A DNA stretch of 64,000 bases from an uncultured Candidatus Saccharibacteria bacterium (GTDB lineage: Bacteria > Patescibacteriota > Saccharimonadia > Saccharimonadales > AWTP1-31), in NCBI GenBank assembly GCA_937903325.1, contig CALCZR010000058.1:129034-193033 (forward strand), given 5' to 3'. Below, piece by piece: positions 19,444-39,243 of this stretch. The notes beneath the pieces were generated by a model. It was given only the letters and a program-made list of their open reading frames with translations. It was not told where the DNA came from and did not search any database. Made by a program: the position numbers and the translations under genes. Every line of letters starts with the position of its first letter. Within the stretch, counting starts at the first letter, position 1.

Positions 19444-19459
19444 TGGTGACCTCACCGGG
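19444..19459. repeat. att core, left copy (TGGTGACCTCACCGGG)
   Basis: Exact 16-bp match to 48316-48331, which is the 3' end (including CCA) of tRNA-Glu on the minus strand. Confidence 0.6.
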
Positions 19460-19569: not shown

Positions 19570-20052
19570 ATGTTTAATTTACTGCGCCGCAACCAATCAC
19601 CCCTCGACCTGCTAACGTCAAAACTACTCAATGAAGAGACGTTTTATCCTATGTTTACCAAAGATTTAAACAAATGCTCACAGGAGGTAATCATTGAGTC
19701 ACCATTTGTGACGAACAGACGTCTTTCGCAATTGCTACCAACTTTACAGAAACTCAAAGACCGCAAAGTACGAGTAATAATTAATACTCGTGATCCGATT
19801 GAGCACGATGATGAGTACCAAAGAGGAGATGCTCATAGTGCCATTGCAGCGTTGCAGCGAATTGGCGTTCAGGTTCTATATACAGCCGGGCATCATAGAA
19901 AGATAGTAATCCTCGATCGACAAATACTTTACGAAGGTTCACTCAATGTTCTATCCCAAAACGATAGCTGTGAAGTAATGCGACGAGTCGAATCTTCTCA
20001 GCTAGCATGGCAAATGGCCAGATTTGTCGGAATTGATAAGTTCTTAGGCTGA
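19570..20052 (+). CDS. PLD-family (single HKD motif) nuclease, Nuc-like
   Basis: HRKIVILDRQILYEGSLN matches HxK(x)4D(x)6GSxN exactly. Confidence 0.8.
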   Translation: MFNLLRRNQSPLDLLTSKLLNEETFYPMFTKDLNKCSQEVIIESPFVTNRRLSQLLPTLQKLKDRKVRVIINTRDPIEHDDEYQRGDAHSAIAALQRIGVQVLYTAGHHRKIVILDRQILYEGSLNVLSQNDSCEVMRRVESSQLAWQMARFVGIDKFLG

Positions 20053-20474: not shown

Positions 20475-20590
20475 ATGGCTGTAATTATAGCACCAGAGGT
20501 CACTATTCTGTAAAACAATATTGCTTTACCCGCAATATTAAGCTACTCTTGCACTAGGAATACCTAACAGTGGTGGGTACGGGAGAAACG

Positions 20591-22078
20591 ATGTTCTTGC
20601 TTGCGTCCACTCAACCTAGCTTTATCGAACGATATCTTATCGGCACGTCGCCCACTGCACATCTCCTCAATATCCCAATTATAGTCATTGGCGGATGCCT
20701 CTTTATATGGTTCATCATCCTACCTATCGTTCGGATAATCCTCGACATTCTAGACTACCGGCGGCTACGTAAGCGTAAGTTAGTATTTCTAGAGTTAACA
20801 CCGCCTCATATCAGTACTAAGTCTCCACTGGCAACAACTGAGTTATATGACACTATCCACGGGTTGCTTAGTAGCGTTACGCACAAGGAGCGTCTATTCA
20901 ACCGTAAACATATATTGCCACTTGAGGTCTATGCTACTCGGGAAGAGGGCATCCGCTTTCGAGCAGCCCTTGATCCAGACGATGTTGAGCTTTTTCAACA
21001 ACTAGTTATTGCATACCTTCCTCAGATACAGTTTCGGGAAGTTAAAGATTACATGACGGCTGCACTCAATGGTCAAGATTTTCGTATTTTAGAGTTTGCT
21101 CAGACCAACCACTTTGCTTACCGACTAGCTGCCCATGATAACCTGAAGCAACACGATCCCATGGCCTACATAACCACCGCTATGACAAAACTTGGTGAAC
21201 ACGAGCTACTGGCTATGCAGTTGGTGCTATCTCCAGCTTCACCCAGAGCGGCAAATAAAATACGAAGTCAGTTACTGCACGGTGAAGATAAGGGATTAAA
21301 CCGCGAATGGTGGCACTATCCATTTATCTTTGTTGGCAAAGTTATCAAGCTCATTTTTAGTATGCTCGCTGGCTTATTGGAGATTCTTGGCGATGAAATG
21401 GCAGGCGTTCGAACGCCTCGCCAACAACAAGGATCTGGGTACTACGGCTCGCAGCAAAATATCGGTCCGATCAATAAGCCTGCAATTGATACCATCCATG
21501 CCAAGCTGGCTGAACAGCTATTCAATGTAGATATCCGTGCGTTAGTTGTCGGACCAAACAGTGGACAGCGGGCACAAGGGTTGGCCAACGCCCTCTATAT
21601 GTTCCGTGTACCTGGCTACCAAGGGCTGTACTCCCGAAAAGTGCGGTTGTTTAAAACTAAGCGAGTGGAGCATCGCTTGGACGCCTTTCATAAACGTTTG
21701 CCAGCTACGTTAACCCGTAACTCTTCGGTGCTCGGGACTTCCGAGTTAGCCGCCTTGTACCACTTCCCGTACGGGGAGCATATGCAGTCAGAAGATATGG
21801 TTAAGTCAGTGGCGAAAACACTGCCAGCCCCGCTATCTATGAAGAACCACGCTAATGCTGCCGATTACGATATTGTTCTCGGAACCAATAATCACCATGG
21901 TAGTCGCACCGCTATTGGCTTAACGGCTAAAGAACGAGAAAAGCATGTTTACCTCATTGGTGGTACCGGCAACGGCAAGACCACTATGCTGGAGTACGCC
22001 CTACTGCAAGACATCAAGGCCGGTAAAGGCGTAGCTTTTATTGATCCGCATGGTGACGCTGCTCAGAAACTCCTTTAG
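20591..22078 (+). CDS. TraD/VirD4-like type IV coupling-protein ATPase, N-terminal fragment (ends at in-frame TAG)
   Basis: TM segment IPIIVIGGCLFIWFIILPIV; Walker A GGTGNGKTT; FIDPHGD. The ATG at 20591 is preceded by GGGAG. The ORF ends at TAG 22076-22078 and the same frame continues. Confidence 0.7.
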   Translation: MFLLASTQPSFIERYLIGTSPTAHLLNIPIIVIGGCLFIWFIILPIVRIILDILDYRRLRKRKLVFLELTPPHISTKSPLATTELYDTIHGLLSSVTHKERLFNRKHILPLEVYATREEGIRFRAALDPDDVELFQQLVIAYLPQIQFREVKDYMTAALNGQDFRILEFAQTNHFAYRLAAHDNLKQHDPMAYITTAMTKLGEHELLAMQLVLSPASPRAANKIRSQLLHGEDKGLNREWWHYPFIFVGKVIKLIFSMLAGLLEILGDEMAGVRTPRQQQGSGYYGSQQNIGPINKPAIDTIHAKLAEQLFNVDIRALVVGPNSGQRAQGLANALYMFRVPGYQGLYSRKVRLFKTKRVEHRLDAFHKRLPATLTRNSSVLGTSELAALYHFPYGEHMQSEDMVKSVAKTLPAPLSMKNHANAADYDIVLGTNNHHGSRTAIGLTAKEREKHVYLIGGTGNGKTTMLEYALLQDIKAGKGVAFIDPHGDAAQKLL

Positions 22079-22108: not shown

Positions 22109-23239
22109 GTGTATCTAAATCCTCGAGATATTAAGCACCCGATCGGTCTCAACCTCCTGGAGTTGCCTGAGGGACTCGACGAAGATGAGCTACTGGTCGA
22201 ACAAGAGCGAGTTACTGAAGCAGTGGTGTCGGTGCTTAGAAAAGTCTTCGCCGATGACGATGCTAACGCCCACCGGATCGAAGGAATGCTACGCAATACC
22301 ATTAGGACAGCCTTTAGCACTGAAAACCCAACATTGTTTACATGCTTGGAGTTACTGCGAAACAGCGAGTTTCGTAATAAAGTTGTTGCTAAACTCACGG
22401 AAGCCCACTTAAAAGATTTCTGGCGAGAAGAGTTTGGTAAAGCTGGAGGCATGCAACGAGTAAGTATGACCAAGGGTTTGACACATCGGTTAGACCGCTT
22501 CGATGGGTCACAGTTTGTAAACCGTATGATGAGTCAAAAGAAATCTACCATTAGCTTCGAGGATATTATTGACACTGGGAAGATCCTTATCTGTAACTTT
22601 AGTACTGACATGGGTGAAGATACCGCAACGTTGTTTGGTACAACTGTATTGGCTAAACTCAAGATTGCCGCCGAACGACGCCACAACCAGCCCGAAGCTC
22701 AGCGTAAGCCCTTTTACGTTTACGTAGATGAGTTCCAGAACTTTGCGACTACGCCGTTTGTGAAGATGCTGTCTGCTTCACGCAAATACAAGCTATTCTT
22801 AACCATTGCCGAACAATCTGCCGCTCAACAGGAAGAACAACGCTTAACGGAAGCGATCCTGGCCAACGTCAGTACAATTGTGTGCTTTGGATTGGGCAGC
22901 CCATTCGATGAGCGACTGTTATTAGGGCGGTATGAACCTTGGCTTGAGAAAGGCAACCTACTCAACCAGCCAGCCTACAACTTTTACCTGAGAGTTAAGG
23001 CCGAGGAACCGATGGAGCCGGTATCTGGGGAGACGATTGTTTTGCCGACGGAAGACGGCAGCGAGCAACGCGCCGACGAGGTGATTACAGCTTCCAGAGA
23101 AAACTATGCGGTTGAATGGAAAAGTTATATGCCCAGCAGGGCAAAGGACGCCTCCAAACAACCCGACGTCAAAGTAGCTAACAGTAGGGAGGGTGCTGAG
23201 AAGAGTGTAGATTTTCAAGCTAGAGCGCTGGATGCTTAA
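22109..23239 (+). CDS. TraD/VirD4-like ATPase, C-terminal fragment (same frame as 20591..22078)
   Basis: Continues directly after the TAG as YIPKERIKDVVYLNPRDIKHPIGLNLLE. Walker B FYVYVDEFQNF. The track's start at 22109 is only the first start-like codon. Confidence 0.7.
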   Translation: MYLNPRDIKHPIGLNLLELPEGLDEDELLVEQERVTEAVVSVLRKVFADDDANAHRIEGMLRNTIRTAFSTENPTLFTCLELLRNSEFRNKVVAKLTEAHLKDFWREEFGKAGGMQRVSMTKGLTHRLDRFDGSQFVNRMMSQKKSTISFEDIIDTGKILICNFSTDMGEDTATLFGTTVLAKLKIAAERRHNQPEAQRKPFYVYVDEFQNFATTPFVKMLSASRKYKLFLTIAEQSAAQQEEQRLTEAILANVSTIVCFGLGSPFDERLLLGRYEPWLEKGNLLNQPAYNFYLRVKAEEPMEPVSGETIVLPTEDGSEQRADEVITASRENYAVEWKSYMPSRAKDASKQPDVKVANSREGAEKSVDFQARALDA

Positions 23240-23309: not shown

Positions 23310-24785
23310 CTAGTTCCGTTTAGCGGCGATAGAGTAGCCGATGGCAGACAAACCAAGTAGTGTGGCGATAACCACGCCAAGTAGAGATACTGAATTGATG
23401 CCGGTGTTTGGTGCGGCAGCATTAGTGCCAGCATTTGCATTGGTGGTTGTAGCTGAGCAGACAGCACCTTCGAATTGGTAGGCACCAACAGATGGACAAG
23501 AATTACGGGCTACACCACGAGCATCGGTAGATATGCCTAAGACCTGACCACCGGCGTTAATTGCCGGACTACCTGCCAATAAGGCCATGGTTGGTACAAC
23601 ACCACCATTGTCCTGCAGCGGGCCGAGAGTGCTGAAAAGATTGGCAAGATTTTGTTGGTCGCCGGGTTGGGTAAAGGTGGTACACGTACTATCGTCGGAT
23701 AAATTATGGCCGTCGGAAATAATCCCGGTAGTAACCGTGCCTGTCAGGCCACCAAATGCCGCATTACCATTTAATTCAGCACAGTTGGACGATACATTAT
23801 CGCTGATATTATTGGTGAGCAGGCTATTTTCGACGTTCATAGTAACGGACGAGGTGTGCGGTGTCGCCGCTGCTCCACCGGTGAAGAAGGCCACTGAATT
23901 TTCACCAATCGAACCAGTACTTCCGTCAAGTCCGACAACTGTTACGTTTTTTACAATCACACTGATGGTGGTATCACCGCTCAACGCCGCACCAATGCTT
24001 CCAAATCCTAGCGCTGCTGCAGAAGCAGTTATGTTATTAATAGTTGTATTGTAGACATTTGCATTTACCGTGCCGGTTCCGGCTATTAGGACAAAGAAGG
24101 CTCCGGCATCGCCAGCAGAGTTATGTATATTTGCTACCGTAGTATTCTGTATATTGGCCGTAGGTGTAGAGGTATTGAAGGCATATACCCCACTAGTTGC
24201 CGCGGCGTCTAGATCATGAATATAGACGTTATTAGCTGTCGTGGTAACATTGGCCGCTGCGGAGTTGCCCAGTTCCACACCCTTTAATTGGTTCCCCGTT
24301 GGCAGGGCGTTAGTGCCATCTATTTCAATGTTTGATAGTGTCACACTGCCATTGGTGCTGATAATTCCTTGCCCAAGATAGCTGGCTATTTTCAAGTCCT
24401 GGACAGTAACGACAGCCGTAGAACTGTTGATGCGAATTGTGCGATATTGCCCAGCATTTCCATCAATTGTCGTCTGGCTCATCCCAGCTCCCTGGATCTT
24501 GACCGACACCGATATTGTCGGTGAATCTGCTGTTAACATCTGCGTGCCGGCAGGTATGGTAATAGTGTCATTAGTTCCGTAACCTTCTGGTGACACAATA
24601 GCCGTACAGCCAGATTGGTCAGAGCCAGCATTTACTGAGTTAATAGCAATAGGGAGCGTACAACCACCAGATACATTTAGGGTTGCGGCGTGTGCTCGTC
24701 CAGAACCGGAAGCCATGACTGCCAAAAAGGCGAAAGTTGCCAGGATTAGTTTGTTTGTTTTTGTTAGATTTAAAATACTGAGCAT
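23310..24785 (-). CDS. Secreted beta-helix surface protein, family member 1 (choice-of-anchor-Q-like C-terminal domain, APNTG sorting signal)
   Basis: Signal peptide MLSILNLTKTNKLILATFAFLAVMASGSGRAHA; conserved C-terminal block GHNLSDD..C..F.QPGDQQN..LGPLQDNGG.VPT.ALLAGSPAI.AG...TDARGVAR; then APNTG, a hydrophobic helix and KRN. Confidence 0.85.
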   Translation of the reverse strand: MLSILNLTKTNKLILATFAFLAVMASGSGRAHAATLNVSGGCTLPIAINSVNAGSDQSGCTAIVSPEGYGTNDTITIPAGTQMLTADSPTISVSVKIQGAGMSQTTIDGNAGQYRTIRINSSTAVVTVQDLKIASYLGQGIISTNGSVTLSNIEIDGTNALPTGNQLKGVELGNSAAANVTTTANNVYIHDLDAAATSGVYAFNTSTPTANIQNTTVANIHNSAGDAGAFFVLIAGTGTVNANVYNTTINNITASAAALGFGSIGAALSGDTTISVIVKNVTVVGLDGSTGSIGENSVAFFTGGAAATPHTSSVTMNVENSLLTNNISDNVSSNCAELNGNAAFGGLTGTVTTGIISDGHNLSDDSTCTTFTQPGDQQNLANLFSTLGPLQDNGGVVPTMALLAGSPAINAGGQVLGISTDARGVARNSCPSVGAYQFEGAVCSATTTNANAGTNAAAPNTGINSVSLLGVVIATLLGLSAIGYSIAAKRN

Positions 24786-24824: not shown

Positions 24825-24853
24825 ATTCTACCCCCCCCTGAGATACAATGCAA
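24825..24853 (-). promoter_or_regulatory. Candidate promoter with G8 tract in spacer (member 1)
   Basis: Coding strand reads TTGCAT-TGTATCTCA-G8-TAGAAT, spacer 17 nt. The C run on the plus strand is 24831-24838. Confidence 0.5.
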
Positions 24854-25128: not shown

Positions 25129-25186
25129 CTAACGTCTTTCTGTTGTGACAATCACCAGAGAGTCATAAGTTTTACTGGTTTTATGT
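25129..25186 (-). pseudogene. Relic of a sortase gene 3' end
   Basis: gacaatcaccagagagtcataagtttt matches the 3' ends of both island sortase genes with 1-2 mismatches. It translates as KTYDSLVIVTTERR*, against KTYDSRVIVVAEA(F/Y)* in the intact genes. No upstream sortase ORF remains. Confidence 0.5.
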
Positions 25187-25214: not shown

Positions 25215-26717
25215 CTACTTTAATGCAGTCCTCTTGCGTAGTGCGTAGGCAGTAATGCCAAGACCCAGAGAAGTGGCAATAATCGTCATAGCTGGAGATA
25301 CAGCGCCAATACCTGTGTTCGGAGCTCCTGCATTACCGCTACCAGGCGTAGAAGGAGTAGAGGCGCCACAGACAGCGCCTTCAAATTGGAAGGCTCCAAC
25401 GGATGGACAGTCGTCTGGGCGTGCCACACCACGAGCATCGGTAGTAATACCAAGCACCGAGCTACCAGCTGCGATGGCTGGAGATCCAGCTAGAAGCGCG
25501 CGAGTCGGAACATTGCCGCCGTTGTCCTGAAGTGGACCAAGGGTTGGAATAATATTATCGAAGTTTTGCTGGTCACCAGGTTGGTTGAAGCCAGCGCAGC
25601 TATCGTCATCGGAGATGTTATGGCCGAGAGAGGTAATACTCGTTTCGACATCATCTTCAGTGCCATTTCCACTAAATATATCCGTTAGATTAGCGATGGA
25701 GCAATTTGAGGACACGCCGTCATTAGTATTGTCCGCCATAAGACTATTGGTAACGTTAACTGCTACGTTAGCGTGATACCCAACTTGGAAAGAAGCTGCT
25801 GCGGCGTAGAAGGCGGCCGACTTAACACCCGCAGCACTGTTCGTGCCGGTAAAACCTCGAGTCCCAGTAATGGTTATATTCTGCACACTCGTATTGACAG
25901 ATACGTTGCCCGAAGCCGCCACCCCAAAACTACCAAACGGCGCAACAAGATCATCGCCCGTAACGTCATCGACTGTTGTATTGGCTATGCTCGAAGTAAC
26001 ACTTGCGCTACCCGTAGCCAGCATAATGACACCAAAGGTAGGACCCGCCCCACTTCCGTGAATATCGGCCAGCGTCACCCTATTGAGGTCGGCAGTTATT
26101 GCCGTCTCGTTGGCCGCATTTATATAGAAAGTATATAAGCTATTGTTGCCTTGTATATTGTGGATATATACATCGTCCGCATCGACGGTTAGCTGAGCAC
26201 TCTGGTCGCCAAACACGCCCACAGGAGTATCCGACGATAGTTCCGCGTCCTGCCCATCCACTTCTAAATTACGAAGAGTGGTATTAACGTCGACCATTTG
26301 AATCGCACTTCCAGAGTAGGCTGTAATTTTCATATCCCTGAGTGTCACATCAAAGGTCGCCCCCAAACTATCTGCAATGAAAACATTGTACAGTCCGGCA
26401 TCACCGTTAACGGTTGTCTGCCCCATGCCCGCACCAGCAATGGTGACTGGCTCGGTAATTGGTGGCAAGTCTGCAGTAAGGGTTTGAGTTCCGGATGGAA
26501 TGTTAATGGTGTCGTTCGTTCCATAGCCAGACCCACCGCAACTTGCCTGTGCGGAACCAGCGTTGACCGAGTCAACCGCATCGTTAAGAGTACAGCCAGA
26601 CCCAACAGTAATGGTTGCAGCATGAGCTCGTCCAGAACCGAAAGCTATTACTGCCAAAAAAGCGAAAGTGGCCAGGATAAGCTTATTTGTTTTTGTTAGA
26701 TTTAAAATGCTTTCCAT
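25215..26717 (-). CDS. Secreted beta-helix surface protein, family member 2
   Basis: Same signal peptide (MESILNLTKTNKLILATFAFLAVIAFGSGRAHA), same conserved C-terminal block, then GAPNTG, a TM and RKRTALK. Confidence 0.85.
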   Translation of the reverse strand: MESILNLTKTNKLILATFAFLAVIAFGSGRAHAATITVGSGCTLNDAVDSVNAGSAQASCGGSGYGTNDTINIPSGTQTLTADLPPITEPVTIAGAGMGQTTVNGDAGLYNVFIADSLGATFDVTLRDMKITAYSGSAIQMVDVNTTLRNLEVDGQDAELSSDTPVGVFGDQSAQLTVDADDVYIHNIQGNNSLYTFYINAANETAITADLNRVTLADIHGSGAGPTFGVIMLATGSASVTSSIANTTVDDVTGDDLVAPFGSFGVAASGNVSVNTSVQNITITGTRGFTGTNSAAGVKSAAFYAAAASFQVGYHANVAVNVTNSLMADNTNDGVSSNCSIANLTDIFSGNGTEDDVETSITSLGHNISDDDSCAGFNQPGDQQNFDNIIPTLGPLQDNGGNVPTRALLAGSPAIAAGSSVLGITTDARGVARPDDCPSVGAFQFEGAVCGASTPSTPGSGNAGAPNTGIGAVSPAMTIIATSLGLGITAYALRKRTALK

Positions 26718-26752
26718 TTATAATTCCTACTTTACGCTAGTGTTTAAATGGT

Positions 26753-26780
26753 AGTCTACCCCCCCGTAAGTTATTTGCAA
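26753..26780 (-). promoter_or_regulatory. Candidate promoter with G7 tract in spacer (member 2)
   Basis: TTGCAA-ATAACTTAC-G7-TAGACT, spacer 16 nt. C run 26759-26765. Confidence 0.5.
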
Positions 26781-26930
26781 GAACACCTGTTTGAACCACT
26801 CGTATGTATTACCCTTACGGTTGACGATTGTGGCACATTTGAGGTAAAATGTAGCTACAATTGATTCGCTTTCCGAACTGTCACCGTATGGTGCGCGTGC
26901 CTGGGACAACCAGGATAGGAAGCGAATTTT

Positions 26931-27551
26931 TTATTTGAAGTACCAAATATCTTCAGTGCGCTTGTTGATAACTTTTAGGTAGATATCGCTGTCAGTTTTA
27001 CGCTTTTGAGTTGTTCGTAAAAGACTACCCGCAACCATATCTGCCAGCTGAATCAAGTTATCATTCTTAGAGTTAACAAACTTCATATCTTTTATTATGC
27101 TACCGTCTGGATTAGCCTGCTGGCGAAAATACGTTGTTGCCGCTTTCTTGTAGGACCGGTCTTCGTGACCATCAAGACGAATCCGTCCATCGGTAATCTT
27201 GCCAGCACTTTTAGAGAGCACCTCTTTGATCATGTAGTTATAGAATTTATCCTTGTTTCTCCTAAGTTCAACGCTTCTGATGATAGACTTATCGGCGACT
27301 ATTGCCCGAACCCGGAACTTACAACTTTTTATCTCGTTTAAAAAAGCGAGACGTATATCTTTACTAGCTTTGTTGAACTTAAACTCATGATCGTCTCGCC
27401 ATCCAAGCGAACGACGCAATCGCTTGATCTTAAGTGCCGTTTCTTCGGCATCAAGGTTGTCATCAAAGACAATGCAGGCAATAACAAAGTGTGTGCTCGA
27501 ACCCTTATCAAATTTAAAGCCCGGATCTCCTGAATCATCTATGAATACCAG
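26931..27551 (-). CDS. DUF3800 domain protein, copy 1 (likely non-canonical start)
   Basis: C-terminal LIQLADMVAG motif. The frame stays open upstream of the track start (27419) to 27557 and encodes LVFIDDSGDPGF, the DUF3800 N-terminal motif. No ATG/GTG/TTG is available there (CTG at 27551, ATA at 27554). Confidence 0.65.
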   Translation of the reverse strand: MVFIDDSGDPGFKFDKGSSTHFVIACIVFDDNLDAEETALKIKRLRRSLGWRDDHEFKFNKASKDIRLAFLNEIKSCKFRVRAIVADKSIIRSVELRRNKDKFYNYMIKEVLSKSAGKITDGRIRLDGHEDRSYKKAATTYFRQQANPDGSIIKDMKFVNSKNDNLIQLADMVAGSLLRTTQKRKTDSDIYLKVINKRTEDIWYFK

Positions 27552-27600
27552 TATGTATTATATGATCATATTTAGATCAAAGCCACCGGGTAGGTCTATA

Positions 27601-29118
27601 CTAGGCTCGCTTGCGAGCGAAGACATATCCGAGAGTTAGTAACCCGGCAAAAGAAGCAAACAACGAACCAACGAGAGAGACAGAATTAGCGCCGGTGTTT
27701 GGTGCTCCTGCATTACCGCTACCAGACGTAGAAGGAGTGGAGGCGCCACAGACAGCACCTTCGAACTGGAAGGCACCGACAGATGGGCAAGCGTTTGGAC
27801 GAGCGATTCCACGGGCGTCGGTGGTCACACCGAGTACTGAACCGCCAGCAGAAATAGCTGGAGAGCCAGGCAGAAGTGCACGGGTTGGAACGGCGCCGCC
27901 GTTGTCTTGGAGAGGACCAAGGGTAGAGTATACATTGGACACATTATGCTGATCGGTTGGAGAAGTAAACGAACCGGCACAACTGTTATCATCAAAAATA
28001 TTGTGACCTAGCGAGTTAACAGAAACTACTCCTGTCCCAAGTCCACTAGCTAATGCTGTGAAATCTCCTACAGCACAGTTATTTGATACTCCATTACTTT
28101 TGTTGTTTGCCAGAAGACTATTGCCAACCGAGATTGTACTTGTGGCGGTTGTACCTGCCCCAACGCCTAACGATGCTGCATAGAAAGCTGCCGAGGCTGC
28201 TAATCCGGTTGGGTCTAGTGTACCGTCTGTCCCAGTGACAGTGACGTTATTAATGATTGTATTCACAAGTGCATCACCATTATTGGAATAAGCGTTATTG
28301 GAGAACGGCGCAGCAATTGTAGTAGTCGAATAGACATTATCAATTGTAATATTAGCAGCGTTAGCGTTGAGCGTACCAAAACCACCAAAGACGTTATCCC
28401 ACAAGCCGACTGAAAGCATTACGCCAATAGTACCGCCCCCAGAAGTAGTATTTGAGATGTTTGCAATGGTAATATTTTGCAAGGATACATTTGATACCCC
28501 ACCTTGCCCCTGGTTAATTAACAACGCTCCAACAACATTCGCCGAACCTACAATGTCATGTACATAAATGTCACTAAGGTTAACCGTTCTTGTACCCGAA
28601 GAAAGGGATTGCAAGAATATAGCTTCAAATTCGCCACTTGCTGGCTGGGCATCGCTACCGTCTACTTCAATATTATTTATATTTAGAGTCTCATCTGTGT
28701 TAGATAAGATTGCGTAGCCGCTATACGCGATAACCTTTAAATTGCTGATGGTTGCAGATATCCCAGTACCGATTTCTATACCATTATACTGTCCATTGTC
28801 TCCATCAATTATGGTTTGGCTCATACCGGCACCGTTAATAACTATATCTTCGGTGATTACAGGTATGTCTGCAGTCAGCGTCTGAGTTCCCGACGGGATA
28901 TTGATGGTGTCATTGGTGCCGTAACTGCCTACAGCAGTACACCCAGACTGGTTGTTACCAGCGTTCACTGAGTCAATAGCAATAGCAAGCGTGCAACCAC
29001 CAGTTATATTGAGTGTTGCGGCATGAGCTCGGCCAGAACCAAAAGCCAGAACAGCCAAAAAGGCAAAAGCTGCCAGGACTAGTTTGTTTGTTTTACAGAG
29101 ATTAAGGATGTTTTGCAT
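27601..29118 (-). CDS. Secreted beta-helix surface protein, family member 3
   Basis: The family N-terminus starts at MQNILNLCKTNKLVLAAFAFLAVLAFGSGRAHA (ATG 29118, AGGAA RBS). Conserved C-terminal block, then GAPNTG, a TM and RKRA. Confidence 0.85.
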   Translation of the reverse strand: MQNILNLCKTNKLVLAAFAFLAVLAFGSGRAHAATLNITGGCTLAIAIDSVNAGNNQSGCTAVGSYGTNDTINIPSGTQTLTADIPVITEDIVINGAGMSQTIIDGDNGQYNGIEIGTGISATISNLKVIAYSGYAILSNTDETLNINNIEVDGSDAQPASGEFEAIFLQSLSSGTRTVNLSDIYVHDIVGSANVVGALLINQGQGGVSNVSLQNITIANISNTTSGGGTIGVMLSVGLWDNVFGGFGTLNANAANITIDNVYSTTTIAAPFSNNAYSNNGDALVNTIINNVTVTGTDGTLDPTGLAASAAFYAASLGVGAGTTATSTISVGNSLLANNKSNGVSNNCAVGDFTALASGLGTGVVSVNSLGHNIFDDNSCAGSFTSPTDQHNVSNVYSTLGPLQDNGGAVPTRALLPGSPAISAGGSVLGVTTDARGIARPNACPSVGAFQFEGAVCGASTPSTSGSGNAGAPNTGANSVSLVGSLFASFAGLLTLGYVFARKRA

Positions 29119-29189
29119 GCAGAGTATTCCTATCAATTTGTTTACGCTTATGCTTATTGTATCATTTGAGCCTTGCTCATATGTAATTG

Positions 29190-32100
29190 TTAACTTATGG
29201 GTGTGATTACAGTTGGAGCAAACCCTGTTGGGCTTGAATGACTTTGTGGAATTGTCATAGAAACGGTAGTGCCTTTTCCAGGAGTACTTTGGACAGTTAT
29301 GCCTCCGCCAAGTTTCTGCAGAATCATGCGGGTGATATACAAGTTAAGTCCAAGTCCGGGGTGATCAAAGGTTGTCGAATCTGTACCGCGAGTTAATGGC
29401 TCGAAAAGATGTGCCATCACCTCCGGTGACATACCAACCCCTTTGTCATGTACTGTTATGAGCGTTTTGCCGCCAACAGATTTACTGCTGATAGTTACGG
29501 CACTATTGGCATTGCTAAATTGAACAGCATTTTCGACCGTTGATCGAATAATCTGAGTTAGTTCTTCTGGCTGCATTTGCACAACAGAGGTGGAGCTGAG
29601 TAAATTGCTCACGGTCACCCCTTTTTCGGCAGTCAGTTTAGATAGTAACGGTGCAATATTTTGCTCGTAAGCGTGTTGGACAGAAATATTTGGAGCAGGA
29701 CCGCCAACAACACTAAAACGGCTTACCTTTCCAAGTGACTCAGATAATTGGACCAACTGCCCAATACCATTAGTAAGCAGCTTAGTGTCGGGGAACTGCT
29801 CCAGACCTACCGTGCCAGACTGTAATGCACTGGCATGGGAAGCTAAACTGGTAGCCGCATCAGCTACAAAGGATTTCTTTTGATCTAGTAATTGTTGCTC
29901 GGTTGCTAGTCGCTGTTTTATTTGGGTGTGAAGTTGTCGCTGTTTTTTCCAGGCCAGAAACGTTACTACTGCAGCGATCGCACCAAAGAATGCCCACATT
30001 AATTGATTCAGGTATCGCCCCCAGCTATGATCGTAGGATTTACTAAAGTACAATGCCAAATCTGTCACCGTCACGAGCCCTGCAATGCCAGCCAACGGCA
30101 CCCACAACTGTTTGTTTGATGTGGCCAGGACTTCGCCAGAAACTACCGGACGATCTCCAGGTGCTAATGCTTGCTCTGCCTGATACGTGAGGTTATTTGA
30201 TGTTGTCTGCAGGGCGACAAGCTTAGCCTTGAATTGGGCAATAAATTCCGGCTGCAATGCATGCTTTGATGCAATCAACTCTAAAGCGCCGTTCATGATA
30301 CTAAGCGGCGTATTAAGATAATGTGTAATTATCGCCAAGAAATCCGAGACTGATTGCCTAGTAGTACTAACTTTTGTTAGTAGGTCGGCCATAGCTTTCT
30401 GGTACCGATACTCACGCCATGCACGGTAAGCATAGTACAACGCCAGGAGCAGTAACCAGGACAAGAAGAAATATGGTGCGAGGCTTACTTTTGGTTGCTT
30501 CGTTATCAGGGGGAATGGCGCAGGAAGTTCAGTCTCTGGAACTTTTGAGATATCTAATAGTACTGGCTCTTCTTCACCAGCGGGCGTCTCGATAGTAGTC
30601 ACCGGACCTCCACCCGAACTCGTTGGTCGATTTGGGCGTGTAGGGGTAACTGGGGTAGTTGGTGTTGTTGGATTAGTAGGAGTTGGCGGAGTCCCGGGCA
30701 CCAGCACATCGTATATGCCAAGTACCCAGCTACTCTGCCCGACAGCATTAACGGCGGATACCTGGAAATCATATCGGGCACCGGATGTTAGGCCCGTAAT
30801 GGTAGCCGAAGTATTTGTGCTCGGCGGATGGCTAAACTCAAGCCACTCATTGGTACCCTTTAGTCGATATTGTATGCGGTAGTTAATAATCGGTGTACCG
30901 CCATCGTTAGCCGGCGGATCCCACGACAATGCCATGCTCGATGAGGTGGGAGTACCGCCAAGGTTACGCGGGGGCCCAGGCAGGCTCTCGCCTGGAGTAA
31001 ACGTTGGATAGATGGCAACATGGCTGTACCAAACGGGTAAGCTAAAATCCCACGTATCAAGCGGCGGGTTGCTTGTATTATTTTTGAAATAGTTCGGCGA
31101 TTGATTGCCTGCATTTACCGTATGACACACTACCGTATTGTTGTAAATACTCTGAGTTAGTATAGGATCTGCGTCGGGATCGACTGGGCCCTCGACCTCT
31201 AGCCAGTTGGCACAGGGCACATCACCGCTGAGTGAAGCATCAAAGTAGTTATTGACAAGCATAGTATCGGCTTCGCTGGAAGTGATTGTCCCTTGACCTT
31301 CACTAAAAACGTGGGTAAAACGACCGACGAGTGCACCTTCGTTCGGATTGCTGGTGTTTGGTATCGTCGCGGCGCTGAATGAATTAGTAATAGTGCTGCG
31401 GGGGTTAGGGTTTCCGCTTACATCTGTCACACTGACTCCTCCGACAAGACCTCCGGTATTTGAGTCGTAGGCATTTTTTGCAACCTCGGGTGTTTCTGTT
31501 GCAAACTCAGGCTGTTCATTACCTAAAACCCCAGTCGCATATGATGAGGTTATATCGGTATGATCGGCAGTTCCAATCAGGCCACCAACAGAGGCTCCAA
31601 GTTCGATATATCCGTTTTGATCATCATACTCTAAAGTTGTGACAGCGCCTGATACAACACCGGCTGCGTAGGTATCGGTCAGTGTCACCCTCGCGGTGCC
31701 AGAGCCAATCGTTCCACTCACGCCGATCAGGCCGCCCAGTGCGTATCCGGCCTGCACCGAACCGGTAGCATAGGCCTGCCGTATAGCGACTTGGCCTTGG
31801 GCAATACCAATCAATCCGCCCGCGCCAGCTCCACCATTCTGGTTAGCAAAGTAACCTTGGCCCGCTACCGAACCGGTAGCATGTACTCGAGTAATCGTTG
31901 CGGTTCCGAGCGCGCTAATACTACCAATTAGACCACCCGCTCGAACCAGTGTGCCTGTACCCGCTACATAATCTTGTGCGAGGCCAACCGACCCGGTAGC
32001 ATACACGTCCTGAAGCGCATGATTATATCCCTGCAAAGACCCAGCAAGTCCGCCGAGTCCACCAACAACCTGTTTGCCACCTATACTCACCAGTCCTGTA

Positions 32101-35100
32101 GCGTAGCTATCACGCAAAATACTTGGCGTGGCTGTTTGCGATACCGCAATAGTCGTACCAAGCAGTCCACCTGCCAAAGCCGCTAAGTCATCACATTGAT
32201 CCACCTGACACGCTTGGTTGAGCGTCACGCTCACCTCGCCCGAAGCATGTACACCTTCAATTCTCGACCACCCAACAACCATACCAACTGCGCCACCAAC
32301 TATAGGGCCGCCTAATGTATCGATAACAGGACTTACTGCCGAAAAATCAATCGAACCAGTCGCGTACGAATTCCGAATACGCATCGCACTTGTTAAATTA
32401 TTTCCCCCAGTAGCCCCGCCAACCAATCCTCCCGCCGCACCAGAAACTCCGCGCACCACTTGGTTGCCGTCTTCAACAGTAATATCGCCCGATGCAAAAG
32501 AATCAGCAATATCGAGCAAAGTGGCCGAGCCTACTAGCCCCCCGGCGTAAGATACCGTACCATTCGAAATAGTTATGTCCATCGACGAGCTAGAGTCTTG
32601 GATCTTAACGCCCCTCACCAAGGAAGCTTCTGGATCGGCGGGGCTTACAGTTCCTTGATTGGCGCTAAAGCCAACAAGTCCACCGCCAGACCCTTCGCCT
32701 AATTGAATCTGCCCTGTAGAGTTACTGTTCGTTATGGTTAGCGACGAGTCATAGGAGCCACCTACTAAGCCACCGGCAAATGCAGGATCGGGATTACCAC
32801 CAGAGATTGGACAGGCAATTGTGCCGCTATATGCTGAGTCTTCTATGGCGACCGTGCCGACCGCTGTTATTCCTATTAGCCCTCCAGCTCCTTCGCTGCA
32901 TGTACCAGTACTACCCATATCGGAGATAGCATTTCGAAGTGAAATATTAGCGTCTGACATTGCTCCACCAATTATTCCTCCGGAAAGACTACTATCTAAA
33001 ATTGTGCCATGTGATTGGATATCCTGCATGGTAAGTTCGGATTGCTCAACATTTACGTATATCATGCCCAATATGCCCCCACTGGTGCCAGGAGACTGCA
33101 CCACCCCTGTATAGGAAACATCCTGCCATAATACCGACCCGTCAAAGCCGGTACTATCAAAATCAGATAATGTGCCTACAATGCCGCCGGTAAAATCTTC
33201 CCCAATAACATCCCCGGCAACTGTAATGTCGTCTAAAATTGTGTCCGGAGAGGCAGAGGCAATCAGTGTCGCCGCAGGAACATCGTTAGACAACATACTT
33301 GCAACAGAGGAATTTGTTACAGCAAGGTTCCGAATTTCGGCGCTTTGGGCAAACGAAAACATGCCAACCCCTTGATAGCTGGCATTTGCAGGAATATTCA
33401 TTTGCAGATCACTAATACTGAACCCTTGACCGTCAAGAGTTCCTTGGAATGGCGTACTGGGATCACCCACAGGTATCCACCCCTCGCCACCATTCCAGGT
33501 AAGTGTATCGCTACAGTCAATATTGTTCATCAGATGAAATACGCTGCCTCTATACTGATCAAGCACGCTGTGCATCTGTTGACACTCGGTAATGCCGATG
33601 AATACCTGAAAATTCTGCACACTACTCCAACTACCCTGGCCAAATGAATTTACCGCAGCAATACGAAAGTCGATGCTATCAATAACCCGTGCTTCGGCCT
33701 GAATAGCAAGAACAATGGCCTGTGCTAAATCGGTATCGGTTGTATTAGTACTGTCGAAACTCAAGTCTGTTCCGGTGCCATCTACAACAGTAGTCCACGT
33801 GCCGTTTGAAGCCGCCCACCCATAGTTTTGGAGCTCAGCTTGGGAAGCCGCCCAATCACTACCCGGACGGGGCTTGAACTGAATAACGTAATCGGTAATT
33901 GGGGCGCCAAGATCTGGTGCTTGCCAATCGAGCTTAGGGAAAGAAAACGGTGCGAACTGATTGGTTTGTTCCACCCCGGTTACTATCATATTTTGTGGCG
34001 CAGACGGTAACCGACTAGTACTAACGTTTTCGAGAACTTCCCAATCCCCTTGACCGATAGCATTAACTGCGGCAACTCTAACATCGTACAGTTGACCAGC
34101 AACCAGCCCTGATATGAGCTGAGACCGGTCAGTCGATGGTGATCGGCTAACACTATTCCAGGAACTGTTGCCGTGGAGTTTATACTGCACAGCGTAATCG
34201 GTGAGTGGGGTATTGCCATCCAATATTGGTGCCAGCCACTGCGTCGTTAAACTCGAGGGATTTACACTGTTAGTCGTTATAGTTCGCACTTTGCCAGGTA
34301 ACGTAGGTGCCCCCAGTGCCTGGGAAAGAAAGATAGGGGTAGACGAAGTAACCGTCTTCCAGACGTTTGTGAAATCCCACTCTTGGTTTCCCCCGACCCT
34401 AAACGGTGCATAGGTAGAGTTATTATAAAAATAGTTAGGCTGCGAATTACCTGAGTTCACCGCCGAGCAAAAGCCAACGGGCGACTGTTCTGGTAAAATT
34501 ACCGAGAAGTCACTATCTACATAGCCACCTATACAGTTATCAAGCCCGGTTCGAGATGCGTCAATGAAGTTTCCGCTGCCTGAGATATTTACACCAAATG
34601 GTGGATCGGCATTTTCTTCGTATAACCCCACGCCAATAAATCCACCAAATGCCTCACGCTCCATTGGACCAGTCGATATCGTCTGTGATCCAACGGCAAA
34701 TGAATTGTTGATCTCAATTGCCGCTGCCATTGCCGCAAAACCACCTGCCAAAACGACGGAAGGGTCTAGCTCAGGACTACGAGTAATAGAAATAGCCATT
34801 GAACTATAGCTATTGTCTACTGTGCCTCCTAATGCTTGGCCGAATAATCCGCCGGCAAACATGGTAGTTGCCCCTTGGGTGTAAGCACCGGTTATCGTAC
34901 CAGTAGAATACGAGTCCGAGATGTTTGAAGAGTAGCTTACCAGCATCAAACCACTAGCGAAAGCCGCCTTACCACTGTCTCCATTACTATAACTATTGTT
35001 CGTAATATCCATATCGACCGATATCCTAGTCGCCGTGCTAAACATAAACATGCCAACAAATCCGCTGGCATTAACACTTCCACCTGTACCCTCGCAGAAA

Positions 35101-36005
35101 ACCGTTCCAGAAACCGAAACATCACTGAATGAAGAATTACTAGCCTGTGAAGCAATGGGCGCCAAAAGAACATCAGCATTGTCTGTTGCAAGATCTACAT
35201 TGGTAAGTTTTACATTTGTAACAGAAGCACCGATAGCGAGTCCGAACAACCCAGCCTCGGTGTCGTCCGTGAGTATCCGCTGATACAAACCATCTATGGC
35301 ATGACCGTTACCCTCCAATGTGCCTGTGAATTCTTGACCGTTGCTGCCATTTCCAACCGCCACAAATCCAGCACCACTATTCCAAGTGTTTGTTGCCGTG
35401 CAATCTATTGGTCCGGTTAATTCGTAATGGCCCGCTCTATCGTCTTGCATTTCTTGTAATTGTTCACACGTCGATATTTGGTATGGTTGTTCCGGACTGC
35501 CTAGACCAATCCCCGAAAAAGCCTGTGCTGCAGGAAAACCTACAATGGCAATAACTGCAATAAATACCGCTACACACACCTCCGCAACAGCCAACCAGTA
35601 GAATGCAGGTCTCCAGCGGTAATGAAAACGTGGAAACACAACCACACGCAAGTGGTGCAAAAAACCGTACTTAGTTTTTGGAGTAATTTTTATAAGCGGC
35701 TTCTTATGGTGCTGATAATCCATCCACATATATAAAAGAGAGCACACCGATAGAAGTCCAAGACTAGAAAGAGGTGACCACAAGAACGAAAAATTTGTTA
35801 TCTGGCTTGCGCTGGACTCAATTAACCGACTGACAAATTTACTAGATTCTGGTTTGACACGTAAGTAGATCAAAGCGGCAATTGAGGCCAGCATAACAAA
35901 AATAGGCAGCATCTTAACACGTTGCCGATACATCCTATCACTAAAAGCGCCAGCCCTATCTGCTAGGCGTTTACGCTGAACAATTTTTACAGTCGCCTTC
36001 GTCAT
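29190..36005 (-). CDS. Giant (2271 aa) membrane sensor histidine kinase with GLUG-repeat/FN3 ectodomain
   Basis: Three N-terminal TM segments. A roughly 1600-aa ectodomain has two modules opening with an IgA-protease-like motif (ISTCEQLQEM...FTGTLEGNGHAIDGL; ITECQQMHSV...FQGTLDGQGFSISDL), followed by many GGL(V/I)G GLUG-type repeats. Three FN3-like domains and a PT-rich linker follow, then a TM. H-box FLAIITHYLNTPLS, two more TM segments, then HATPase_c (ENAVQFS, DKGVGM, GLGLNL, GKGTTV). Confidence 0.85.
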   Translation of the reverse strand: MTKATVKIVQRKRLADRAGAFSDRMYRQRVKMLPIFVMLASIAALIYLRVKPESSKFVSRLIESSASQITNFSFLWSPLSSLGLLSVCSLLYMWMDYQHHKKPLIKITPKTKYGFLHHLRVVVFPRFHYRWRPAFYWLAVAEVCVAVFIAVIAIVGFPAAQAFSGIGLGSPEQPYQISTCEQLQEMQDDRAGHYELTGPIDCTATNTWNSGAGFVAVGNGSNGQEFTGTLEGNGHAIDGLYQRILTDDTEAGLFGLAIGASVTNVKLTNVDLATDNADVLLAPIASQASNSSFSDVSVSGTVFCEGTGGSVNASGFVGMFMFSTATRISVDMDITNNSYSNGDSGKAAFASGLMLVSYSSNISDSYSTGTITGAYTQGATTMFAGGLFGQALGGTVDNSYSSMAISITRSPELDPSVVLAGGFAAMAAAIEINNSFAVGSQTISTGPMEREAFGGFIGVGLYEENADPPFGVNISGSGNFIDASRTGLDNCIGGYVDSDFSVILPEQSPVGFCSAVNSGNSQPNYFYNNSTYAPFRVGGNQEWDFTNVWKTVTSSTPIFLSQALGAPTLPGKVRTITTNSVNPSSLTTQWLAPILDGNTPLTDYAVQYKLHGNSSWNSVSRSPSTDRSQLISGLVAGQLYDVRVAAVNAIGQGDWEVLENVSTSRLPSAPQNMIVTGVEQTNQFAPFSFPKLDWQAPDLGAPITDYVIQFKPRPGSDWAASQAELQNYGWAASNGTWTTVVDGTGTDLSFDSTNTTDTDLAQAIVLAIQAEARVIDSIDFRIAAVNSFGQGSWSSVQNFQVFIGITECQQMHSVLDQYRGSVFHLMNNIDCSDTLTWNGGEGWIPVGDPSTPFQGTLDGQGFSISDLQMNIPANASYQGVGMFSFAQSAEIRNLAVTNSSVASMLSNDVPAATLIASASPDTILDDITVAGDVIGEDFTGGIVGTLSDFDSTGFDGSVLWQDVSYTGVVQSPGTSGGILGMIYVNVEQSELTMQDIQSHGTILDSSLSGGIIGGAMSDANISLRNAISDMGSTGTCSEGAGGLIGITAVGTVAIEDSAYSGTIACPISGGNPDPAFAGGLVGGSYDSSLTITNSNSTGQIQLGEGSGGGLVGFSANQGTVSPADPEASLVRGVKIQDSSSSMDITISNGTVSYAGGLVGSATLLDIADSFASGDITVEDGNQVVRGVSGAAGGLVGGATGGNNLTSAMRIRNSYATGSIDFSAVSPVIDTLGGPIVGGAVGMVVGWSRIEGVHASGEVSVTLNQACQVDQCDDLAALAGGLLGTTIAVSQTATPSILRDSYATGLVSIGGKQVVGGLGGLAGSLQGYNHALQDVYATGSVGLAQDYVAGTGTLVRAGGLIGSISALGTATITRVHATGSVAGQGYFANQNGGAGAGGLIGIAQGQVAIRQAYATGSVQAGYALGGLIGVSGTIGSGTARVTLTDTYAAGVVSGAVTTLEYDDQNGYIELGASVGGLIGTADHTDITSSYATGVLGNEQPEFATETPEVAKNAYDSNTGGLVGGVSVTDVSGNPNPRSTITNSFSAATIPNTSNPNEGALVGRFTHVFSEGQGTITSSEADTMLVNNYFDASLSGDVPCANWLEVEGPVDPDADPILTQSIYNNTVVCHTVNAGNQSPNYFKNNTSNPPLDTWDFSLPVWYSHVAIYPTFTPGESLPGPPRNLGGTPTSSSMALSWDPPANDGGTPIINYRIQYRLKGTNEWLEFSHPPSTNTSATITGLTSGARYDFQVSAVNAVGQSSWVLGIYDVLVPGTPPTPTNPTTPTTPVTPTRPNRPTSSGGGPVTTIETPAGEEEPVLLDISKVPETELPAPFPLITKQPKVSLAPYFFLSWLLLLALYYAYRAWREYRYQKAMADLLTKVSTTRQSVSDFLAIITHYLNTPLSIMNGALELIASKHALQPEFIAQFKAKLVALQTTSNNLTYQAEQALAPGDRPVVSGEVLATSNKQLWVPLAGIAGLVTVTDLALYFSKSYDHSWGRYLNQLMWAFFGAIAAVVTFLAWKKQRQLHTQIKQRLATEQQLLDQKKSFVADAATSLASHASALQSGTVGLEQFPDTKLLTNGIGQLVQLSESLGKVSRFSVVGGPAPNISVQHAYEQNIAPLLSKLTAEKGVTVSNLLSSTSVVQMQPEELTQIIRSTVENAVQFSNANSAVTISSKSVGGKTLITVHDKGVGMSPEVMAHLFEPLTRGTDSTTFDHPGLGLNLYITRMILQKLGGGITVQSTPGKGTTVSMTIPQSHSSPTGFAPTVITPIS

Positions 36006-36107
36006 ATATACTCTTATGGTTACCTCTATTGTACTAGAGTTGCCGACTACTTACTGACATTTTGTTAATTTGCACACTGTAAGTACAATTAAGCACAAGG
36101 ACATACC

Positions 36108-36509
36108 ATGAAAGTTTCATCAAAATTTCACCCCATAACGCCGTATCTCTGTCTTATATTAGTTGCAATCGGGATAACTGCCTATGTCGCATATCACAAG
36201 GGTAATACCAACAGACAGGACCAATCAACCAGGCAAGCCAAAGCACAAACTCTAGACAGCGCCTTCGAGAGCTCAGCAAGCTTCTTTAAACGTAATATTA
36301 CTGGCACTGTCAGTAAAGTCAGCGCAAAACAGATTACCATTGTATCGCCTAACTCTACCGAACAAACCTTTAACCTTACCCCAAAAACCATATTCCAACG
36401 TGCAGGCCAGAAAATATCCGTAACCGATCTAAAGAAAGATCAGCAAGTAACTATCTTAAGAAGTATATCTGACTATTCACAAGCAGCTGGAATTACAATC
36501 AATAGGTAG
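36108..36509 (+). CDS. Hypothetical membrane-anchored protein (133 aa)
   Basis: N-terminal TM YLCLILVAIGITAYVAY. Divergent from the giant kinase gene; the only plus-strand gene in the cargo. Confidence 0.5.
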   Translation: MKVSSKFHPITPYLCLILVAIGITAYVAYHKGNTNRQDQSTRQAKAQTLDSAFESSASFFKRNITGTVSKVSAKQITIVSPNSTEQTFNLTPKTIFQRAGQKISVTDLKKDQQVTILRSISDYSQAAGITINR

Positions 36510-36510
36510 T

Positions 36511-36747
36511 CTAGTCAGCTAGTAGTAGCATCGAAACATCTTCGAAAAGAGCATGGTCTTGTGCTGTACGTAAATCGATGGGAATAGCACCTAGTCTTTC
36601 GAATTCACTCTGGGCCCAATCCAAACTCTGCTCGTACGTCATGCCTATATGAATATCGAGCATTTCAGGGGTCATACTAATTCTTTCAGGAGCAGCAAAC
36701 CCATTGGCCGCCGCCGCAAGATCCGCTTCCCCAATCTGTTCTAACAT
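36511..36747 (-). CDS. Small acidic protein, paralog of 24864..25097
   Basis: 78 aa; shared motifs as listed for the other copy. Lies directly downstream of member 4. Confidence 0.55.
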   Translation of the reverse strand: MLEQIGEADLAAAANGFAAPERISMTPEMLDIHIGMTYEQSLDWAQSEFERLGAIPIDLRTAQDHALFEDVSMLLLAD

Positions 36748-36781
36748 GTTACTAGTTTACTATTCTTTTCGATACGTGCAA

Positions 36782-38467: not shown

Positions 38468-38504
38468 GTGTTAGTTCCTATGTTAACGCTTGTGTTTAAT
38501 AGGT

Positions 38505-38533
38505 AGTCTACCCCCCCCGGAAATTTTGAGCAA
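38505..38533 (-). promoter_or_regulatory. Candidate promoter with G8 tract in spacer (member 4)
   Basis: TTGCTC-AAAATTTCC-G8-TAGACT, spacer 17 nt. C run 38511-38518. Confidence 0.5.
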
Positions 38534-38544
38534 GTCTAAGCTAC

Positions 38545-39243
38545 CTAGAAGGCTTCTGCGACAACAATCACCCGAGAGTCATAGGTTTTACTATCTTTGT
38601 CGAACTTACCAGTGCAGGTAATTAGGTTAAGCTGCTTAGAAATGGTCTTGTCACGCACAAAGAGAGCCGTATCGGCCTCTTTGGTGGAAACTGTTTGGAC
38701 TTGTTTGACTTTGAACCTTCTAACGCTTTTATCGCCAAATGTAACGCTAAACTTGTCGTCTGTTTTAAGTTTGCCAATGTTATAAAAGATACCTTTGGCA
38801 TACAGCCCATGTACATGGCCATCCAGAATGCTCAGACCATCTGCACCAGGCAAAACACTGCCCGTGTACCAGCCAGCCATATGCACATTATTAGGCACTA
38901 CCATCCGGTTTTCTTTATCTACGCCTACCTGCTGAATGAAGCCCCCTGCCTTAACAGTTGGAAGCTGGATTGATAGCGGTTTATCTGCGGTAACACTATA
39001 GTTTTTTGGGGGGAGTTGCTCACTGGGCTCATCAGTAGAAACGGTAGCCACGGTGTGCCCAGCCGGTACGCCAGCATGCTGGATTTTGTACCATTTGCGC
39101 ACAGCATTTACGCCGATACCTATCAACACTACGCCAACAATAAGAGCCACGAGCCGTGTTTTTTGCCGAGTTGAAAGCGACCGCCACTTACCCTTTGCGA
39201 TGTTCTTGGTGGTTTTCTTTGATCTTTTCTTATTGAGAGCCAT
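38545..39243 (-). CDS. Sortase (island copy 1)
   Basis: N-terminal TM; LDGHVHG (His), LITCTGKFD (Cys), SRVIVV (Arg). Starts 4 nt after the member 5 stop. Confidence 0.85.
   Translation of the reverse strand: MALNKKRSKKTTKNIAKGKWRSLSTRQKTRLVALIVGVVLIGIGVNAVRKWYKIQHAGVPAGHTVATVSTDEPSEQLPPKNYSVTADKPLSIQLPTVKAGGFIQQVGVDKENRMVVPNNVHMAGWYTGSVLPGADGLSILDGHVHGLYAKGIFYNIGKLKTDDKFSVTFGDKSVRRFKVKQVQTVSTKEADTALFVRDKTISKQLNLITCTGKFDKDSKTYDSRVIVVAEAF

Follow-up and report, generated by a model that had tools for sequence, protein, structure and literature searches.

Organization of the locus and of its repeated module

The DNA studied here is a 64,000-nt stretch (called here the window) of contig CALCZR010000058.1, from the metagenome-assembled genome (MAG) GCA_937903325.1 of an uncultured Candidatus Saccharibacteria bacterium. 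It carries an array of surface-protein genes in which one 866-bp sequence occurs twice, and this repeat is the subject of the present analysis. According to the list of open reading frames (ORFs), the array comprises seven paralogous genes, m1 to m7, all located on the minus strand and each encoding a protein of ~500 aa. These proteins possess a choice-of-anchor Q domain and beta-helix-like repeats; at their C-terminus, a PNTG sorting signal precedes a transmembrane segment and a basic tail. A previous reading of the window from its letters (called here the sequence-only reading) had quoted C-terminal peptides for m3 and m6, and these were correct when compared with the translations. The genes are arranged in the order m7-srt-m6-(repeat B)-m5-srt-m4-p133-kinase-m3-(repeat A)-m2-m1, where srt stands for a sortase gene (Table 1).

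Each repeat contains a DUF3800 reading frame, an antisense DUF3800-IX RNA and the promoter and 5' untranslated region (5'UTR) of the next surface-protein gene, an assemblage called here the module. The contents given by the sequence-only reading, namely the m2/m5 promoter with its G7 tract, the 5'UTR, the first codons and DUF3800, are all present, the coding part of m2 or m5 amounting to the first 8 nt.

Table 1. Position of the features of the window that are discussed in the text.
Feature	Position	Strand	Basis or remark
m1, surface protein	23310-24785	-	ORF
G8 tract, m1	24831-24838		
Sortase 3'-end remnant downstream of m2	~25140-25180	-	15 residues, KTYDSLVIVTTE cf. KTYDSRVIVVAEA; tblastn and blastn
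m2, choice-of-anchor Q / beta-helix surface protein with PNTG sorting signal	25215-26717	-	NCBIfam NF041518; alignment
Repeat copy A, 866 bp exact, m3 stop to m2 start	26710-27575	.	Identical to copy B
m2 promoter-like region	26753-26780	-	-35 TTGCAA (26775-26780), 16-nt spacer ending in G7, -10 TAGACT (26753-26758)
G7 tract, m2	26759-26765		
Promoter-like site TTGACG-18-TAAAAT, copy A	26821-26850	+	10/12 in consensus scan; putative
DUF3800-IX RNA motif, copy A	26863-26932	+	Rfam RF02968; antisense to and abutting the DUF3800 stop; U-run at its end
DUF3800 reading frame, copy A	26931-27551	-	Pfam PF12686; full domain, no ATG; first canonical start TTG at 27419
4-nt CATG deletion site (DUF3800 start codon), copy A	27551-27552	-	Relatives ...ACATGCTGGTATTC, window ...ACATACTGGTATTC
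Block between the repeats, 13.1 kb, unique	27576-40712	.	m3, kinase, p133, m4, class-F-like sortase, m5
Flank covering the 3' end of m3	27576-27700	-	~87% identity (109/125) to 41579-41703 in m6
m3, surface-protein paralog upstream of copy A	27601-29118	-	Family profile and alignment
Histidine kinase, 2271 aa	29190-36005	-	ORF; within the block bracketed by the repeats
m4, surface protein	36782-38467	-	ORF
G8 tract, m4	38511-38518		
Sortase	38545-39243	-	Best score class F
m5, surface-protein paralog downstream of copy B	39248-40720	-	Alignment
Repeat copy B, 866 bp exact, m6 stop to m5 start	40713-41578	.	Identical to copy A
m5 promoter-like region	40756-40783	-	Copy of the m2 region
G7 tract, m5	40762-40768		
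Promoter-like site, copy B	40824-40853	+	As copy A
DUF3800-IX RNA motif, copy B	40866-40935	+	Rfam RF02968
DUF3800 reading frame, copy B	40934-41554	-	Identical to copy A; exact repeat, ORF
Copy B tract with 17 SNPs in ERZ650269 (277 bp)	40943-41219	-	0 SNPs in the other 11.7 kb
4-nt CATG deletion site, copy B	41554-41555	-	As copy A
m6, surface-protein paralog upstream of copy B	41604-43100	-	Alignment
G9 tract, m6	43144-43152		
Sortase	43178-43861	-	Best score class F
m7, surface protein	43877-45376	-	ORF
G9 tract, m7	45419-45427		
Replic_Relax protein	45535-46314		
Large serine recombinase	46641-48356		ORF runs into tRNA-Glu
tRNA-Glu	48316-48390	-	

Extent and limits of the identity between the two copies

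An exact-run search confirmed that the two copies are identical, as had been seen by eye: at an offset of 14003 nt the longest run extends over 866 bp without a mismatch, in direct orientation. The chance of 866 identical bp at a divergence of 2% is 0.98^866 = 2.5e-8. Inverted repeats of at least 40 nt were not found in the window. A gapped comparison of the two regions produced a single strong alignment (26671-27928 with 40674-41925, 93.8% identity), the remaining matches, at 72-85%, being also found with other members of the family.

The identity had been described as decaying gradually on both sides within a segmental duplication of ~4.5 kb, a description that did not hold when the flanks were aligned. 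On the m2/m5 side, 33 of the 39 nt next to the exact core are identical and the similarity then falls at once to that of any pair of paralogs; on the m3/m6 side the short flank listed in Table 1 is likewise followed by background. When aligned by codons, m2 and m5 nowhere exceed the family background, and m3 and m6 show an excess only in their last 120 columns (87.7% compared to at most 57% for other pairs). The amino acid identities point the same way, m2-m5 reaching 58%, the value also found for m5-m7, and m3-m6 56% compared to 55% for m6-m7. The excess identity is therefore confined to a tract of ~1.03 kb (~26671-27700).

The larger unit proposed by the sequence-only reading (member, DUF3800, member, sortase) is present at copy B but not at copy A, where only a 15-residue sortase remnant follows m2. 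This remnant indicates that a sortase gene formerly followed m2, as one still follows m5, and has since been deleted; an old gene order, ancestral to both units, is plausible. The remnant sits in the 430-bp m2-m1 intergenic region.

Both copies of the DUF3800 frame have lost their start codon

DUF3800 proteins have been described as a family with a conserved N-terminal acidic motif and a C-terminal QxxD motif (PMC7736814), with an RNase H-like fold, and have been reported alongside retrons, Cas12a2/a3 loci and defence candidates (PMC10910872, PMC7736814, PMC13594972). The frame of the window matches the Pfam profile with 63 bits (cutoff 21) over positions 1-148 of 149. The residues that are invariant in an alignment of 21 DUF3800 sequences (D5, D6, G8, D9 and Q168-L-A-D171) are present, and the FIDDSGD, D127/H129/D131 and QLAD residues are retained. 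A search of solved structures by sequence gave no meaningful match for this protein.

Neither copy is an intact gene, a point that, like the presence of the RNA, had escaped the sequence-only reading. In all relatives DUF3800 starts with ATG-CTG-GTA-TTC (MLVFIDDSGD). Both copies of the window read TAA-TAC-ATA-CTG-GTA-TTC, a stop followed by YILVFIDDSGD, as the ATG is deleted and a stop codon lies three codons upstream. The sole canonical start left is the internal TTG, which would yield 162 aa without the acidic motif. The CATG deletion, together with a T at 27565, is found in both copies, is confined to this clone and occurs in no relative.

The DUF3800-IX RNA is recognised in both copies with 71.4 bits (gathering score 36.8, E=4e-14) over model positions 1-67 of 67, and an Rfam scan detected the same antisense arrangement of RNA and DUF3800 in 12 related loci. 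The promoter-like site TTGACG-18-TAAAAT is, judging by its position, suitably placed to start this RNA; it should be noted that the number of such sites in the consensus scan was not above the shuffle expectation. Eleven unrelated RNA motifs beside DUF3800 genes were described by Weinberg et al. in 2017, without a functional hypothesis (PMC5737381). The pair of the window resembles the other DUF3800/DUF3800-IX pairs in having the same Pfam domain with acidic and QxxD motifs and an RNA on the opposite strand that ends with a terminator-like U-run. It differs from them in forming a repeated spacer within a surface-protein array and in having lost the start codon in both copies of the clone.

The module is older than the divergence of related genomes

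Every relative retrieved and scanned has the DUF3800/DUF3800-IX pair, Peribacteria included. Close relatives carry the complete module, flanked by homologous surface-protein genes, with a nucleotide identity of 95-97% to that of the window; it begins at the stop codon of one family member and, after DUF3800, the RNA and the poly-G promoter, ends where the following member starts. At least two copies are present in each of two MAGs, SRP286056_co2_68 (contigs L002, L012 and L014) and AWTP1-31 (L004 and L015), where they differ by 1-3% and where the contigs break inside the module. Each of these MAGs possesses both left-junction haplotypes, ACCCGGTGGCTTTGATC (copy A type) and GTCCAGTAGCTTTGAGC (copy B type). 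As these haplotypes are common to several genomes, the two-copy state predates the split of the genomes, which excludes a recent duplication.

The genes beside the module are reassorted among genomes. The order m3-module-m5-srt-m4-p133-kinase is found in L033, L035 and L036, m6-module-m5 in the Logan contigs L040 and L041, and m3like-module-m2like in the more distant L042. In L039 an m6-like gene of only 56% identity stands beside the same DUF3800 allele, and in L042 DUF3800 is 98.5% identical compared to 87-89% for the flanking proteins. The module is better conserved than its flanks. In distant Saccharibacteria (L005, L007, L031 and L032) the immediate neighbours of the pair are clusters of tRNA genes and not surface-protein genes.

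A 10-nt direct repeat, TAATACATAC, surrounds the DUF3800/RNA unit in the window and in L036; considered as a target-site duplication, it was attributed to chance because it is absent from 11 other loci.

Clustered polymorphism in other assemblies of the same clone

Contigs of the same clone were recovered by exact-protein look-ups, and the comparisons described below rest on consensus assemblies. These contigs, which come from several assemblies, are 100% identical to the window along long flanks (>35 kb). Those interrupted by the repeat break exactly k-1 nt inside it, at 41524 (L020 and L021), 27521 and 40767 (where L018 starts) for k=55 and at 41549 (L022) and 27546 for k=31, showing that the boundaries of the repeat are reproducible.

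In the 32x assembly ERZ650269, copy A does not differ from that of the window (12,057 bp compared, 0 mismatches). By comparison, copy B carries 17 single-nucleotide polymorphisms (SNPs), 14 of them synonymous, all within the 277-bp tract of Table 1; such clustering has a probability of ~6e-27 under uniform mutation. Some of these SNPs recur in three other assemblies, and in ERZ650252 the contig linked to copy B carries 11 of the 17. A donor of the tract was sought among all fetched loci, none of which contains an identical one, the nearest reaching 96.9%. The Logan contigs L040 and L041, in which the ATG is intact, have the window alleles at 17/17 of the SNP sites and differ from copy B of the window at five sites only, all within 85 bp. 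The haplotype of copy B in the window is thus real over its 3' 640 bp. Since the versions of copy B in the window, in the Logan contigs and in ERZ650269 differ in clustered blocks within otherwise identical DNA, the differences have the pattern of recombination tracts and not that of point mutation.

Probable homogenization of the module by recombination

The interpretation that we favour, with a probability of roughly 60%, is that the module is an old, conserved spacer whose copies are homogenised by homologous recombination or gene conversion, crossovers at the module reassorting its neighbours. The module sits between fast-diverging genes for sortase-anchored surface proteins, on a 29-kb island apparently integrated at tRNA-Glu. 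Since no other long segment of the array offers good homology, it would be the place where general homologous recombination, presumably of the RecA type, acts. Non-reciprocal exchange (gene conversion) would make the copies alike, and conversion tracts would end where the flanking genes are too divergent, limits that account for the abrupt border at the start codon of m2/m5 and for the short 87% shoulder in the 3' ends of m3 and m6. The 4-nt deletion of the DUF3800 start codon would have arisen in one copy and then been copied into the other. We infer this direction of conversion, as we do the perfect identity of both copies within one physical molecule. Reciprocal exchange would reassort the flanking genes and, between direct repeats, would delete or duplicate the 14-kb block. 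In agreement with gene conversion, a tract of identity is bordered by flanks at background, the copies are non-identical in relatives, and a derived mutation is shared by both copies. The sequence-only reading had left the choice between gene conversion or recombination and a very recent duplication. The former is supported by these data; the latter is rejected, given the flanks at background, the haplotypes common to relatives and the shared, derived ATG deletion.

Several observations weigh against this interpretation. The 32x assembly ERZ650269 keeps 17 SNPs between the two copies, which are thus non-identical in at least one sample. In ERZ650304, one contig (NODE_268) passes through both copies and shows the same mosaic of five differences from the window at each. 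In ERZ650287, the repeat is a separate 866-bp contig (L030), spanning the interval of copy B, in which A-type and B-type alleles are interleaved, with a coverage of 6.9 compared to 4.9 for its flanks (1.4x). The repeats of these last two assemblies are evidently assembler collapses. Because assemblers merge the copies in this way, the perfect identity in the window is not acceptable at face value and could have been produced or exaggerated by the assembler. The evidence for crossing over is exposed to a similar doubt, as the apparently recombinant contigs L001 (described below) and L029 have a coverage of only ~2.9x and ~3x, respectively, and may be chimeras. Nucleotides 1-31 of L001 are the Illumina TruSeq adapter (ACTGGAGTTCAGACGTGTGCTCTTCCGATCT), which suggests that reads were left untrimmed in that series of assemblies.

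The most serious alternative, unlikely on balance though not to be neglected, is accordingly that the copies truly differ by 17-18 SNPs and that a short-read assembler merged them and walked one edge twice. The origin of the window, a 298-kb MAG contig in ENA and NCBI and so probably a short-read assembly, fits such a collapse, as do the three assemblies just described. Against it, the window haplotype is pure at 17/17 sites and not mosaic, two independent Logan contigs join it physically to m6 on one side and to m5 on the other, and the 5' 359 bp, ATG deletion included, are common to both copies in all assemblies. Moreover a collapse, even if true, touches only the word "perfect", the clustered SNP tracts still indicating recombination. 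The caution of the sequence-only reading about assembly was nevertheless justified by the 17 SNPs of copy B and by the collapsed mosaics, and MAG assemblies of this locus are unreliable precisely at the repeat.

That the DUF3800 gene and the RNA are a small mobile cassette, inserted independently and recently at two homologous intergenic sites, is improbable. Such a cassette would agree with the occurrence of the same pair in unrelated contexts in distant Saccharibacteria and Peribacteria, often beside tRNA genes, and with the extent of nucleotide homology in distant relatives, which starts at the ATG and extends ~50 nt beyond the RNA. DUF3800 has moreover been tied to mobile elements and defence systems (PMC13594972), and the frame of the window matches the PADLOC candidate family PDC-M04A (2.5e-15). 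The unit nevertheless has no transposase, integrase or inverted repeats, DUF3800 being its only ORF; the exact repeat runs past it into 104 nt of surface-gene promoter, and these insertion positions are likewise filled in relatives.

Slightly harder still to credit is that the nuclease-like DUF3800 protein and its RNA are more than passive spacers and act as an RNA-guided or RNA-regulated device, which would introduce breaks at the module and thereby cause shuffling, deletion and amplification of the cassettes in the surface-protein array of these episymbiotic bacteria. The module does stand at every recombinant junction seen (m6-m2, m3-m5, m3-m2 and m6-m5), and such an activity, if true, would provide a function for the enigmatic DUF3800/RNA pairs. 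Two facts make this idea weaker: neither copy in this clone retains the start codon, and the pair occurs in unrelated contexts elsewhere.

A very recent duplication of the 866 bp or of a ~4.5-kb unit, with flanks diverged since, is the least credible of all: it would suit the similar gene order (member, DUF3800, member, sortase), the sortase remnant after m2 and the nominally best or joint-best scores of the pairs m2-m5 and m3-m6, but 42-44% amino acid divergence immediately beside 0% divergence is impossible in that case, the identity of the flanks is that of the family, and both junction haplotypes and both arrangements are found in related genomes.

Gene conversion is known to homogenise bacterial surface-protein families and duplicated genes, as in Neisseria opa and pil, Treponema tpr, tuf and rrn. 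The locus shares with families that evolve in concert (reviewed in PMC4534519) a bounded tract of identity, a shared derived mutation, mosaic alleles in close strains and old paralogs. By contrast with these families, the part homogenised here is an intergenic spacer made of an unrelated gene, an RNA and a promoter, whereas the surface-protein genes stay diverged. A literature search on surface arrays and gene conversion in Saccharibacteria gave nothing specific. Homogenization by recombination, as favoured here, is a mechanism of a known kind and fairly ordinary biology, DUF3800 and the DUF3800-IX RNA being known families. The locus is accordingly to be read differently: the repeat is no young duplication but an old, conserved module, and within the variable array of surface-protein genes on this Saccharibacteria island it would act as portable homology. 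The locus also offers a natural, multi-sample example of recombination tracts, with a possible block deletion, in an uncultured bacterium of the Candidate Phyla Radiation, and it places one DUF3800-associated RNA in a defined, repeated genomic setting.

A possible deletion of the 14-kb block

Recombination between direct repeats, for example copies of insertion sequences or rrn operons, deletes or duplicates the intervening DNA. The two 866-bp direct repeats, 14 kb apart, have the same geometry, and contig L001 (ERZ650243 NODE_9729) displays the junction m6-module-m2, 3407/3409 identical to the predicted crossover product. In the same assembly a gene of the island located outside the block was found (L051, 2.6x), and an intact contig for p133, located inside it, was not, which at that coverage supports a genuine deletion weakly. 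Unlike established systems of this kind, the junction contig has a coverage of only ~2.9x and the 32x sample displays no deficit of the block: in ERZ650269 the block is a separate contig of 13,754 bp with a coverage of 31.7, compared to 31.6 and 32.6 for the chromosome, and is therefore not deleted there. Of the deletion or inversion of the block, with its giant kinase, that the sequence-only reading had envisaged, deletion is thus plausible and inversion is not to be expected, direct repeats giving rise to deletion or duplication.

Poly-G tracts in the promoters of the surface-protein genes

The 64-kb window contains six G/C homopolymers of at least 7 nt, all of them upstream of surface-protein genes, m3 being the only gene of the seven without a G tract. 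Each of the six tracts lies between a -35-like hexamer (TTGC..) and a -10-like hexamer (TAGACT, TAGAAT or TACAAT), and at m2 and m5 the promoter-like region is followed by an AGGA ribosome-binding site and an ATG, as read from the sequence. The tract reads G7, G9 or G5AG2 in relatives; among the consensus contigs of the same clone no indel was found in it. The six promoters look like a set of phase-variable promoters. With the homopolymeric-tract promoters of Neisseria porA/nspA and Haemophilus hif (PMC6389960, PMC11868660) they share a tract placed between -35-like and -10-like hexamers and of variable length among relatives. They differ from them in that the consensus assemblies of the same clone are uniform in tract length, and promoter function is here predicted from the hexamers.

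The island that carries the array

A 16-bp direct repeat of the tRNA-Glu 3' end, TGGTGACCTCACCGGG, at 19444-19459 and 48316-48331, brackets an island of ~28.9 kb that is probably an integrative mobilisable element. Besides the entire surface-protein array, the island holds the large serine recombinase and the Replic_Relax protein of Table 1, a coupling-protein-like gene pair, an HTH gene and a PLD-type nuclease. The 2271-aa kinase of the array is a membrane protein whose huge extracellular part contains FN3 domains, an M26 peptidase N-terminal-like region and repeats; p133, a 133-aa DUF5666-like gene (36108-36509), is divergent from it. The VirD4/TraG-like coupling protein is encoded by two adjacent ORFs on the plus strand, 20570-22078 (502 aa, DUF8128/TrwB-like) and 22109-23239 (376 aa, TraG-D_C). 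As the same split is found in the independent assemblies L023 and L024, it is not a sequencing error of the window contig. Finally, a 160-aa PLDc_2 protein (19570-20052, plus strand) matches the C-terminal nuclease region of Mokosh MkoC/MkoB (PADLOC, 2.4e-15) and may correspond to a small defence or nuclease gene at the edge of the island.

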